In this document: piece after piece, positions 9,090 through 15,496 of the stretch
Position numbering within the stretch: the first letter of the stretch is position 1
Layout of the letters: each line of letters opens with the position of its first letter
Origin: Candidatus Hermodarchaeota archaeon
GTDB lineage: Archaea > Asgardarchaeota > Hermodarchaeia > Hermodarchaeales > Hermodarchaeaceae
Assembly: GCA_016840065.1 (NCBI GenBank)
Contig: JAEOTB010000059.1
Span: 1-15,496 of the forward strand
DNA length: 15,496 bases
Direction of reading: 5' to 3'
Notes under the pieces: model-generated
Told to the model about the DNA's origin: nothing
Seen by the model: only the letters and a program-made list of their open reading frames with translations
Database searches by the model: none
Position numbers and translations under genes: made by a program

Positions 9090-10217
9090 ATGAGTGTTCG
9101 TTGGCCAAAATCATTGAAAAGAACAACTTCGCAGGTTCTAAAGGAAATTCAGACGATTATCAAAGACCGAACTGCAATGTTAATGGTGTTCATGTTGCCA
9201 ATTATCACCATCGGAACATTGGCTTTAGCCATCCAGCAGAATGATATTCAAGCTGAAATTGTACCATTGACCCTCGGCATAATCGATCTTGATACTACAA
9301 CAACTTATCCTGACGAGGATCTTTCCTATAATTTCACAGTTACACTTGCTGATCTTGAAGGTCAGGAAGTTATCTTCTTTGCAACCGAGGAGGATGCGTA
9401 TGAAGCACTCTTCCACGGAACGATAGATGGATACATAGTCATACAAGATGGATTCGAACACTCGCTGGCTATGGATTTACCTGCCTTTCTTGAAGTCCAT
9501 ACAAGCAGTACAAATGCTATGGGTCAAAGCGATGTTATTATAGCTGTCACCGAAGCTTCGATGATATTCCGGATGAGTCACGGTTGGATACGCAGTGAAA
9601 TAGTTCCTGAAATGATGTTAGAATTTGTGCCCGAGGGCGACTTTTCAGCTGCTCAAATAGGTGCATTTCTAGTTGTGTTTTGTACTGTGATAGCGATAGC
9701 CATGACATCCTGTCAGTCAATAGTCGGTGACATCCCTCTCAGGCGAATGCTGCTCACACCGACGAGTAAGATTGAAGTGATATTAGCGAAGCTAACTGCT
9801 TACACGATAATCGGTGTTATCCAATCACTTCTTCTCAATGTGATGTGGATTATCCTATTTGAACTAGTATTACACACTGGGCTCCTAACTCTTATGATTA
9901 TCAGTACTCTCTCAGCCTTCGCAGGTGCTGTTTCTGGAGTTACTATCTCTGCCTTCTGCACATCTCGCCTCCAAGCCCAACAAGCGTTCCTATTCCTTCT
10001 TCTAGCGATGATGATACTAAGCGGCATGTTCCTCGATGTTGGAGCGATCTCAGAGTACCTCCCAATCAATATTGGGATGGAACTAATCCGGAAGACCGCT
10101 TTCAAGGGCGTACCGCTTATTACCTGCCTTGACGAAATTGCTAGGATGCTCCTGTTTTGTATTGGCGGAACCCTGCTATCGATTATAGTAATGTGGAGAA
10201 AGCGCACTCTTGCTTAA
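9090..10217 (+). CDS. ABC-2 type exporter permease (YbhR/DrrB-like, with extracytoplasmic domain), 375 aa
   Basis: LKEIQTIIKDR then TM1, an extracellular loop (LGIIDLD...GTIDGYIVIQDGFE), RRMLLTPTSKIEVILAKL, further TM helices and ILSGMF. Confidence 0.92.
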   Translation: MSVRWPKSLKRTTSQVLKEIQTIIKDRTAMLMVFMLPIITIGTLALAIQQNDIQAEIVPLTLGIIDLDTTTTYPDEDLSYNFTVTLADLEGQEVIFFATEEDAYEALFHGTIDGYIVIQDGFEHSLAMDLPAFLEVHTSSTNAMGQSDVIIAVTEASMIFRMSHGWIRSEIVPEMMLEFVPEGDFSAAQIGAFLVVFCTVIAIAMTSCQSIVGDIPLRRMLLTPTSKIEVILAKLTAYTIIGVIQSLLLNVMWIILFELVLHTGLLTLMIISTLSAFAGAVSGVTISAFCTSRLQAQQAFLFLLLAMMILSGMFLDVGAISEYLPINIGMELIRKTAFKGVPLITCLDEIARMLLFCIGGTLLSIIVMWRKRTLA

Positions 10218-10230
10218 ATGAAATTGGTAT

Positions 10231-14900: not shown

Positions 14901-15496
14901 GCGGTGATTCTCTTCGATTCAACTCACAACCTTGCATTGAATATTACAGATTCTGAAAACCTAGCTGACCTTGACTTGGAGGAACTACTAGAGGCTTTCG
15001 AGGAGATGTCAGACAGTATCCTCACAGGATATTCAAGGCTACGGGGCTTGTTCGCCTCAGCACAGCTCAATCTAATGGAGCTGCCCTTCTCGATGGAGTT
15101 AAATTCAACTTTCCTCTCGGCTTTTGATGGTCTCCTTATCTGCGACCCCGAGCAAGGATTCAGTTCCTATGAAGCACTGAACATAAGCAAGTACATCTCA
15201 GATGGGTTCAAAGTATTGATACTTCCAGACAATGCTGATGAAACTAATCATACATCGCTTAATCTCTTACTGGCTGATCATGGCATCCAACTAGGTGAAC
15301 TAGTGGTTGCTTCGAACACCACTGACCTCCTTTCAACATCACCATTTACTCATGGAACCAATATGGTCACTACAGGTAATGGGACGACCCTCCAGTTAGC
15401 GGGCTCAGTAGAAGCCTTTGCATGGGTCAACGGCACTCCAGTAGGGGCATATCAACAAACAGATAATAGGGAACTCTTTGTTTTCGGGTGTTCAGA
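11919..15496 (+). CDS. Large secreted subtilase (S8) homolog, predicted catalytically inactive, with CARDB/Ig-like and GIFT-like domains; 3'-partial, at least 1192 aa
   Basis: Manual translation from ATG 11919 (GAGGTG at 11903-11908) shows no stop codon before the window end. Signal peptide MIRFHTGKAAAVFLVLLVSISIL; I9-like prodomain; SILDTGID (Asp codon 12447); NGHGTYCAG (His codon 12576); GIAPGA; VAAAGDDG; FSSRGP; KPDIVAPG; YTMASTTAAAAAIAAGAACLL; CARDB-like PDL...VLNIG...VDW...DN at about 14190-14550; GIFT-like ILFDSTHN from 14907. Confidence 0.92.
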   Translation, partial: MIRFHTGKAAAVFLVLLVSISILQTISNNTLLMNSADESASQEKISSSLALKLEESTNPDGLQDVIADLDSSFGWRDAQKAILEVDPYARIRAYHNLIHAISIRTTARGVQLIAGIEAVQKIWLDTKIQLDSVIDQSLGEFLTNTLSKYSQPQDVVSTSSLTTQGFNGSHTIVSILDTGIDATHPDLDDFDDNESTNDLKVLGQVSFAEGDPLPFDLNGHGTYCAGLIAGTGTASGQFAGIAPGAQLLGVKVLLANGTGYTSWIVRGIEWSLTHGADIILIPFSTFGMPGDPLSEAIRESTEQGVLTVAAAGDDGPNHMTIMSPGESIAALTVGAYDSGDGAVADFSSRGPTFDLRSKPDIVAPGVNIISCSLYDIIPFDFGEDSLSTGDMDSSLFGLGEFGQSINDNYTMASTTAAAAAIAAGAACLLLQACRFAPPECLIIAMCEGAKSLKSGPNTEGHGLLNVSAAYDELALLHDPFDPQYRARSITPNLPYYGIVMSVGERYNVTLMMSTYTTAMAAILTTNTTNMTITHLLMGMFFLAVGNNSPTPFALLDIEQEMHWTTIPNADYTRTTGILSYEDLLIIPRIESWRIASEPFANAFRFTFFVVNIGEEEYQDVRIFSLWNFDLFMGANDTSEEIGTFNSTSQFFHVEANASPPNETALVNQSVGFNTSTQLTSFEVGAYGDVYDHLMDEALNSSDSYSSDEGVGIGTRWDLGDVTVGAPVINVTLTLGFGNTTQTVIHGINETSLEILDDPQPDLCIIRPHLPRTGLSNSTYHTSALVLNIGDLAATDAIAAFLTNRTQYLGGTIFARYFQFHSIDSFQAIFLEVDWRPEVSEIFFASWLVSPDVSFNLYNLTLPEDHYPFDNAILRDVFISSPPSMRMVTPNQLPYAPMTLRFPNDYALYNLSLLTSTHIEHLQISIQGPAQGNATEWINITETEITDITLGTQFQLMIMIPPFPLADTYAAVIQLSANDGWTTSIHLEVDVVYPKAVILFDSTHNLALNITDSENLADLDLEELLEAFEEMSDSILTGYSRLRGLFASAQLNLMELPFSMELNSTFLSAFDGLLICDPEQGFSSYEALNISKYISDGFKVLILPDNADETNHTSLNLLLADHGIQLGELVVASNTTDLLSTSPFTHGTNMVTTGNGTTLQLAGSVEAFAWVNGTPVGAYQQTDNRELFVFGCS

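Follow-up and report, generated by a model that had tools for sequence, protein, structure and literature searches.

The window analyzed here, 15,496 nucleotides (nt) long, is a complete contig (C34) of an 84%-complete Hermodarchaeota metagenome-assembled genome. From position 9090 on it contains three open reading frames, all on the + strand (9090-10217, 10231-11895 and 11892/11919 to the window end), which encode an ATP-binding cassette type 2 (ABC-2) permease, an ABC ATPase whose N-terminal domain is duplicated, and most of a surface protein that combines a subtilase (S8) domain, catalytically dead to judge from its residues, with a GIFT domain. We describe these genes together with a second ATPase gene on the contig that continues the locus, and we argue that the four form a functional unit, a conserved module of Asgard archaea. 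The features of the locus within the window are as follows.

9090-10217, + strand: ABC-2 permease, 375 amino acids (aa); PF12698 (ABC2_membrane_3) at 4.5e-19, with PF01061 (ABC2_membrane) and PF12679 also above their cut-offs.
10231-11895 (start GTG 10231 or ATG 10240), + strand: ABC ATPase 1, 551-554 aa; ABC_tran at 4e-27 over aa 259-402.
10264-10938, + strand: two tandem helix-plus-barrel repeats of ATPase 1 (P0002; aa ~12-124 and ~125-236), each a homologue of the subdomain that forms the C-terminal part of the TrmB effector domain.
11903-11908, + strand: Shine-Dalgarno-like motif GAGGTG, as read from the sequence, in the 23-nt gap, 10 nt 5' of the gene 3 ATG.
11919-15496, + strand: gene 3, the first 1192 codons of a type I membrane protein of ~1441 aa.
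12420-13217, + strand: Peptidase_S8 domain (PF00082 at 6e-48, more exactly 6.3e-48), catalytically dead by its alignment to Tk-SP (3afg/9ues).
13329-14861, + strand: middle ectodomain region (aa ~471-981), without a Pfam match.
14898-15496, + strand: first two thirds (N-terminal) of the GATase-like alpha/beta GIFT domain, below the model cut-offs in this copy and supported at the family level.

The genes are closely packed. Between the permease and ATPase 1 lie 13 nt if the latter starts at GTG 10231 and 22 nt if it starts at ATG 10240 (as database protein P0004 does), and between ATPase 1 and gene 3 lie 23 nt (11896-11918); inspection of the sequence found T-runs in neither of the intergenic gaps of the three-gene set. 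Gene 3 is open at the window end and continues on another contig of the same genome, C72: window positions 15176-15496 correspond to positions 1-321 of C72 (locus L003), and because the two contig ends overlap over these 321 nt with 3 single-nucleotide polymorphisms, the break inside gene 3 suggests an assembly split by strain heterogeneity. C72 supplies the remainder of gene 3 (L003:2-1069), namely the part of the GIFT domain that the window lacks, a beta-sandwich, a transmembrane (TM) helix, the basic run RRRRR and a tail of ~80 aa, and it carries a second ABC ATPase (ATPase 2; 338 aa, without the N-terminal extension) that overlaps the gene 3 stop. The initial annotation, a model's reading of the window by itself, had recognized the three co-oriented, tightly spaced genes, which stand as described; it had pointed to the downstream sequence as the place to look for a TM anchor and further operon genes, and both are there. 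It had named a single ATPase, whereas the system has two.

Gene 3 encodes, in order, an N-terminal signal/anchor, a pro-region, the S8 domain, a middle region of ~500 aa and the GIFT domain that is cut at the contig end. The S8 domain matches Tk-SP at 1.5e-48 and retains the catalytic Asp (12447) and His (12576); TTA stands where GTS is expected, the catalytic Ser being replaced by Ala (codon GCT, 13164-13166), and AAGD where AAGN is, the oxyanion Asn being replaced by Asp (codon GAT, 12855-12857). On these substitutions the gene 3 product is a pseudo-subtilase, as first proposed, and the loss is common to its kin: in all 20 aligned homologues that lie beside the transporter genes or co-occur with them, Ala, Leu or Gly stands in place of the Ser and Asp invariably in place of the oxyanion Asn; in three families the His has become Arg as well. 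GTSMAAP and the oxyanion Asn are kept only in an Odinarchaeum homologue whose gene does not adjoin ABC genes. That relative (Odinarchaeum yellowstonii, L026:6516-10331, + strand, 1271 aa) has Asp, His, Ser and Asn intact, a Tk-SP-type propeptide, a GIFT domain close after S8 (aa ~603-697) and a cytoplasmic zinc ribbon, and is apparently an active Asgard protein of site-1 protease (S1P)-like architecture.

The dead S8 domain is anciently inactive and under strong purifying selection. Comparison of the window with the congener genome G001 gave the lowest ratio of nonsynonymous to synonymous substitution rates (dN/dS) in S8 (0.065), followed by the middle region (0.084), the GIFT part (0.10) and the pro-region (0.21), the absolute values being rough because dS is ~1.2. 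The public names of the homologues P0029-P0056, 'S8 family serine peptidase' or 'subtilisin family serine protease', are misleading for the ABC-linked clade, since it lacks the catalytic Ser. In the congener orthologue of gene 3 (L025, on G001:C72) we noted one in-frame TAG at codon 1028, in the GIFT region of an otherwise full-length gene, which might reflect recoding, an error in sequencing or a pseudogene at the strain level.

The surface protein contains 41 N-x-S/T sequons, compared with 12 +/- 3 in shuffled sequences and 1-2 in each of its cytoplasmic and membrane partners. Of the heavy glycosylation named in the initial annotation, the sequon excess is thus borne out and the N-glycosylation itself stays a prediction. 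The middle region probably consists of beta-sandwich repeats: an ESM-Atlas feature search gave a lead only, to CARDB/NPCBM_assoc clusters at 0.87 (below 0.9), and CARDB matched weakly in one homologue. Searching for homologues at near-full length returned fragments of the same family only.

Recognition of the GIFT domain depends on the family. The window copy scores 23.2 bits with ABC_transp_aux (PF09822; cut-off 34.7) and is likewise sub-threshold with IFT52_GIFT; PF09822 reaches 21 bits in the orthologue from genome G007 and 37.6 bits in the homologue from Asgard family f7, and relatives exceed the cut-offs of DUF4350 (38.9 and 33.5 bits; cut-off 30.4) and of IFT52_GIFT, PF23355 (36.6 and 33.4 bits; cut-off 27.2). 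A profile of the GIFT region from 21 homologues, searched against the PDB, matched IFT52 at 3.5e-13 and 1.8e-12, S1P at 4e-4 (residues 653-733 of S1P) and WBP1 at 0.011. In an AlphaFold2 model of aa 999-1352 of the G007 orthologue (predicted local distance difference test [pLDDT] 86.9), an alpha/beta domain is followed by a beta-sandwich; Foldseek placed OST48/Wbp1 first for this model, over its full length (2.4e-12, probability 1.0), and also returned IFT52 (TM-score 0.72, target-normalised) and class I GATase-like domains, again with probability 1.0. By profile and predicted fold, the GIFT identity proposed at the outset is established at the family level. The cytoplasmic tail (~80 aa) that follows the TM helix has invariant residues across five families, f7 included, and no recognisable family.

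The permease has approximately six TM segments by hydropathy, with an extracellular loop of ~135 aa between TM1 and TM2 (aa ~50-185), and 43 columns are invariant in an alignment of 18 homologues. ATPase 1 has an intact Walker A, Q-loop, LSGG, Walker B-Glu and H-loop, all invariant in 21 homologues, and the catalytic motifs of ATPase 2 are likewise all invariant among its aligned homologues. Among NCBIfam models both ATPases are nearest to DrrA/NodI-type exporters, the DrrA subfamily being the top match of ATPase 1 (178 bits, under the cut-off of 312) and DrrA-type models scoring higher than the GldA equivalog TIGR03522 (95.5 bits for ATPase 1 and 129.5 bits for ATPase 2; cut-off 402.6). With its permease family match and intact ATPase motifs, the system has the sequence hallmarks of an ABC-2 (DrrAB-like) exporter.

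What sets ATPase 1 apart is its N-terminal ~235 aa, an internal duplication, as the initial annotation had it. The halves align weakly within one protein (BLAST E 9e-4), and 20 repeat units taken from homologues align clearly, sharing Y/F-x-G, W, G and T-[VI]-G-G positions; the T-[VI]-G-G motif is found in both repeats and is followed by E-D in repeat 1. The isolated N-domain matches PF11495 at 27.9 bits (cut-off 22.2), over positions 162-230 of the 233 in the profile, as do 16 of 18 members of the N-domain family (best 2.2e-9), and the profile searches with this domain gave no match to other TrmB-related families. Its AlphaFold2 model (pLDDT 81.8) comprises two helix-plus-barrel units; TrmB (2f5t) is the top Foldseek match, at E 2e-6, and VIA-align gives TrmB Z 15.8 (3qph; root mean square deviation 1.6 Å over 94 residues) and 15.0, the next unrelated match being at Z 8.0. 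A single barrel repeat used as query found nothing in the PDB. The domain is rare, with 18 clusters among 1.84 billion representatives, every long one an ATPase fusion, and TrmB effector domains were found nowhere else in its own genome. In family f20 there are stand-alone proteins of ~160 aa with one TrmB-like barrel unit (for example, L039:9781-10269, - strand); the genomes that have such single-barrel proteins yielded no barrel-bearing ATPase.

By analogy with TrmB, whose C-terminal barrel subdomain gives six of seven sugar contacts (PMC4158304), it is plausible that the N-domain senses a ligand. We compared the barrels with TrmB residues Asn305, Gly320, Met321, Val324, Ile325 and Glu326; the profile alignments stop at about TrmB residue 314, short of the sugar loop at 320-326, and the conserved G-G-x5-E-D of the barrels has a spacing that would be compatible with the 320-326 contacts. 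That the ligand is a sugar is a guess, and one that we think considerably more apt to be wrong than right.

The permease gene or genes, both ATPase genes and the dead subtilase gene are linked in six Asgard families, despite altered gene order. The order permease-ATPase 1-subtilase-ATPase 2 occurs in f1 (Hermodarchaeota), f6 (Thorarchaeota) and f26; f18 has the subtilase gene divergent from ATPase 1-permease-ATPase 2; f23 has ATPase 2-permease-permease-ATPase 1-subtilase; and f9 g25 has permease-permease-ATPase 1-subtilase with ATPase 2 divergent. Within Hermodarchaeota the entire neighbourhood is syntenic, flanks included, so linkage there proves little by itself; between families the flanks differ, and the linkage therefore extends beyond the synteny of close kin. 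Conservation across Asgard genomes, on which the initial annotation had staked its proposal, is thus observed.

The genes also occur together. Of 41 genomes searched with both queries, the same 21 have a strong match to the C-terminal part of the subtilase and to the ATPase N-domain, and the other 20 have neither. Among 301 Asgard genomes the barrel-bearing ATPase was found in 16 of 18 for f1, 73 of 76 for f6, 5 of 5 for f7, 6 of 6 for f18 and 6 of 7 for f23, and in none of the 29 genomes of f4 or the 21 of f21. A permease-motif scan over 185,579 species gave 183 relatives, of which the 80 retained are all Asgard, and the public sequences nearest to the permease gene carry the label Hermodarchaeota or Hermodarchaeum. 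Taking together the reordered linkage, the co-occurrence, the all-Asgard set of retained permease relatives and the invariant tail residues, we argue for the four genes as a functional unit. A complex prediction with ATPase 1, ATPase 2 and the 80-aa tail scored 0.00 (mark 0.32), which is no answer and counts as evidence neither way.

Other genes lie close by. On C72, ATPase 2 is followed by a Ras-family GTPase gene and then an aminotransferase gene; the former (L003:2166-2690, + strand) lies 90 nt 3' of ATPase 2 in all Hermodarchaeota loci examined, and in family f30 a longer Ras-like gene (L034:12215-13054, + strand) lies between ATPase 1 and the permease. It is possible that the Ras-family GTPase is a further partner of the system. 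Elsewhere in the window are another Ras-family GTPase (1414-1977, + strand; E 1.9e-42) and a 688-aa M6 (immune inhibitor A)-like metallopeptidase with a terminal zinc ribbon (2169-4235, + strand). The dead subtilase-GIFT gene of f7 (L023:2958-7465) has TPR/MIT-domain genes and longin-like genes (Fuz_longin_1, weak) as neighbours.

We consider it slightly better than an even bet that the four proteins make up a single Asgard-restricted ABC-2 machine with the dead protease as its auxiliary subunit; the domain identities, catalytic loss, selection, linkage and co-occurrence are as observed above, and we infer the physical assembly, the direction of transport, the cargo and the ligand. The permease, with its large extracellular loop, would presumably act as a homodimer, powered by two different, catalytically competent ATPases, one barrel-bearing and one plain. 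The dead protease would be the extracytoplasmic adaptor or auxiliary subunit, in the role supposed for GldG beside GldA/GldF, and would be tied to the transporter by its TM helix and conserved cytoplasmic tail. ATP-driven movement of the permease might then either hand a surface-bound, hydrophobic or glycan-carrying substrate to the scaffold or alter the conformation of the scaffold itself, and the tandem barrels might be an allosteric regulatory module for a cytoplasmic ligand, maybe a sugar, maybe not. This account is favored by the loss of Ser and oxyanion Asn common to all homologues beside or co-occurring with the transporter, by the S8/GIFT/TM/tail order, which is that of S1P, and by the GIFT, beta-sandwich and TM layout, which is that of OST48/Wbp1.

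Several observations weigh on the other side. A seventh family, f7, has co-occurrence only, the ABC trio standing alone and the subtilase gene being on another contig; in f30 no subtilase gene was found within 10 kb of the ABC genes; and the related genomes in which co-occurrence was scored are non-independent samples. No component reaches the GldA or GldG family cut-off. As for the barrels, the equivalent of TrmB Asn305 is not conserved, the residue aligning with a hydrophobic column, which makes sugar binding a conjecture, and only positions 162-230 of PF11495 are matched, the first effector subdomain of TrmB (with its sugar-recognition helix) and its winged-helix DNA-binding domain being absent. 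Given the missing subdomain and the hydrophobic equivalent of Asn305, the barrels could be a protein-docking module rather than a ligand sensor. Of the sugar-sensing ATPase put forward in the initial annotation, the homology to the sugar-contacting barrel of TrmB stands, and the sensing stays an analogy.

The unlinked subtilase genes of f7 and f30 would suit a looser relation, in which the surface protein is a client and not a subunit: the transporter would export a lipid-linked glycan or another envelope precursor to mature or decorate it, the two being co-regulated and forming no stable complex. The sequon excess and the closeness of the ATPases to DrrA/NodI-type exporters are also in keeping with this, but the conserved TM-proximal module, the cytoplasmic tail and the OST48/GldG-like base are left unexplained by it, and general N-glycosylation needs no dedicated transporter co-occurring one-to-one with a single glycoprotein; we regard it as unlikely, if worth serious attention. 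The same tail, with its invariant residues, could instead carry signals inward. The dead subtilase would then be an extracellular ligand or peptide receptor in the manner of CspC, its tail would signal to the ATPases or to other cytoplasmic partners, and the ABC module would be a regulated effector or a flux sensor for which the scaffold is not the export adaptor. S8 being the most conserved part fits a retained binding cleft, receptor pseudoproteases of the subtilase type exist (PMC6636752) and the CspC/CspBA models were weakly matched, and a Ras-like GTPase gene follows closely on the 3' side in f1 and is embedded in the cluster in f30; however, the system has no signalling output domain, both ATPases resemble ordinary transport engines, and the tail belongs to no recognisable family. 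Outside-in sensing of this kind therefore strikes us as improbable, without being far-fetched.

Closest to the initial annotation is a true GldA/F/G orthologue, gated by a cytoplasmic sugar as in Wzt. Its general architecture (ABC-2 permease, ATPase and GIFT protein) is indeed present, and the barrels are homologous to the sugar-contacting subdomain of TrmB. Against orthology are the GldA model scores of 95-130 bits (cut-off 402.6), the lack of a GldG model match and the presence of two ATPases; against the gating are the hydrophobic Asn305 column and the missing sugar-recognition-helix subdomain. The comparison with Wzt fails on both the position and the fold of the extra domain. In Wzt a C-terminal beta-sandwich module binds the glycan terminus; in ATPase 1 the extra domain is N-terminal and has a TrmB-type barrel fold. 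We therefore give orthology with such gating little credence, retaining of it the architectural likeness. That the genes are chance neighbours without any functional link would be compatible with the syntenic flanks in f1, which taken alone proves little; with linkage in five further families amid other flanks and gene orders, perfect co-occurrence in the 41 genomes, gaps of 13-23 nt and an overlap of gene 3 with ATPase 2, it is very improbable indeed. A reading of the LanFEG/LanP type, as for lantibiotics, was dropped, the protease being dead and no biosynthetic genes lying nearby.

If the four proteins are one machine, it is an Asgard-specific ABC system of many Hermodarchaeota and Thorarchaeota and of several other families, the parts of which are annotated in public databases only as 'S8 family serine peptidase' and generic ABC proteins. 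A heterodimeric ATPase pair, one partner with tandem TrmB-type barrels, would be a possible new mode of ABC regulation, joined to an ancient subtilase pseudoenzyme held under strong selection and to a membrane-proximal module common to three eukaryotic signature proteins (S1P, OST48 and IFT52), and the system bears on what GIFT domains do beside ABC-2 transporters, GldG included. Whether S1P-type architecture is older than the eukaryotes also becomes a testable question. In the S8-GIFT-TM family the Odinarchaeum member is catalytically intact, and those of Hermodarchaeota, Thorarchaeota and other lineages are dead and ABC-coupled. As a long shot, these Asgard proteins could be the prokaryotic stock of eukaryotic S1P, and also of the GIFT-sandwich-TM module of OST48/Wbp1 and perhaps of the GIFT domain of IFT52; on that view the ABC-coupled complex would be what survives, in archaea, of a machine for handling surface glycoproteins that the eukaryotic endomembrane system later took in.

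In domain order the surface protein is comparable with S1P (MBTPS1/SKI-1; 8UW8, 8UWC), which shares the succession of signal, pro-region, S8, beta-rich part, GIFT, TM and basic tail. The cryo-electron microscopy structure of S1P has S8, a P-like sandwich, a GIFT subdomain (617-998) that is unique to S1P among the proprotein convertases (PCSKs), a TM helix and a short tail (PMC11231238). Because this S8/GIFT/TM/tail layout is shared, 'site-1-protease-like', the wording of the initial annotation for its non-catalytic GIFT scaffold, is apt as an architectural description, and the scaffold holds up in its domain order and in the dead site of the ABC-associated homologues. In contrast to S1P, the Asgard protein has lost the catalytic Ser and oxyanion Asn, has a tail of ~80 aa and a middle region of ~500 aa (~140 aa in S1P, a difference of about 3.5x), and is encoded in a predicted ABC operon. 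MBTPS1_4th matched faintly in relatives, PF23090 scored 16-17 bits (cut-off 27), and S1P is missing from the top 60 PDB matches of the S8 domain, to which archaeal Tk-SP is closest. OST48/DDOST and yeast Wbp1 share GIFT, beta-sandwich and a C-terminal TM helix, aligned over the whole module; the Asgard protein differs in being much larger and without STT3 context, with 10-13% sequence identity. Among solved structures, the GIFT domain of IFT52 (5FMS, 5FMR) comes closest in sequence (3.5e-13); IFT52 itself resides in the cytoplasm and belongs to the IFT-B complex, whereas the Asgard GIFT domain is extracellular.

For ATPase 1 the relevant comparison is TrmB of Thermococcales (2F5T, 3QPH): each repeat has the fold of its C-terminal helix-plus-barrel subdomain, but the barrels are tandem-duplicated, fused to an ABC ATPase and without the DNA-binding domain. 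The pseudoproteases CspC and CspA of Clostridioides difficile, which act as receptors or regulators (PMC6636752), parallel the surface protein in keeping a subtilase fold under selection without the catalytic triad, and the NCBIfam CspC and CspBA models match it weakly; unlike the Asgard protein they are soluble spore proteins without GIFT, membrane anchor or ABC partner. Archaeal GldG-like proteins of the arCOG01314/DUF4350 group, encoded beside genes for MoxR-type AAA+ and vWA proteins (Makarova et al. 2015, PMC5898192), have a signal peptide, a GldG-like GIFT ectodomain and a single C-terminal TM helix; in contrast to the Asgard protein they lack a subtilase head and are not found with ABC-2 genes. 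A survey of Asgard transporters (PMC7997004) does not mention the system, and in the literature searched we found no paper joining Asgard with IFT52, S1P, OST48 or GldG. Within that literature the four-component combination is undescribed, in agreement with what was first supposed.

The nearest described system is GldA/GldF/GldG of Flavobacterium (Bacteroidota), in which GldG, a GIFT protein whose gene adjoins gldF, is believed to make up an ABC transporter together with GldA and GldF (PMC5682007). This system and the generic PF09822 'ABC-type uncharacterized transport system' resemble the Asgard locus in co-encoding an ABC-2 permease, an ABC ATPase and a membrane-anchored GIFT auxiliary, which is the part of the initial GldA/F/G-like proposal that stands; the full-length G007 orthologue gave no match to the GldG NCBIfam model at E<=0.001. 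Compared with GldA/F/G, the Asgard system is archaeal and has two distinct ATPases, one with tandem TrmB-type barrels, and its GIFT protein, ~1440 aa long, combines a dead subtilase head with a cytoplasmic tail that is conserved.

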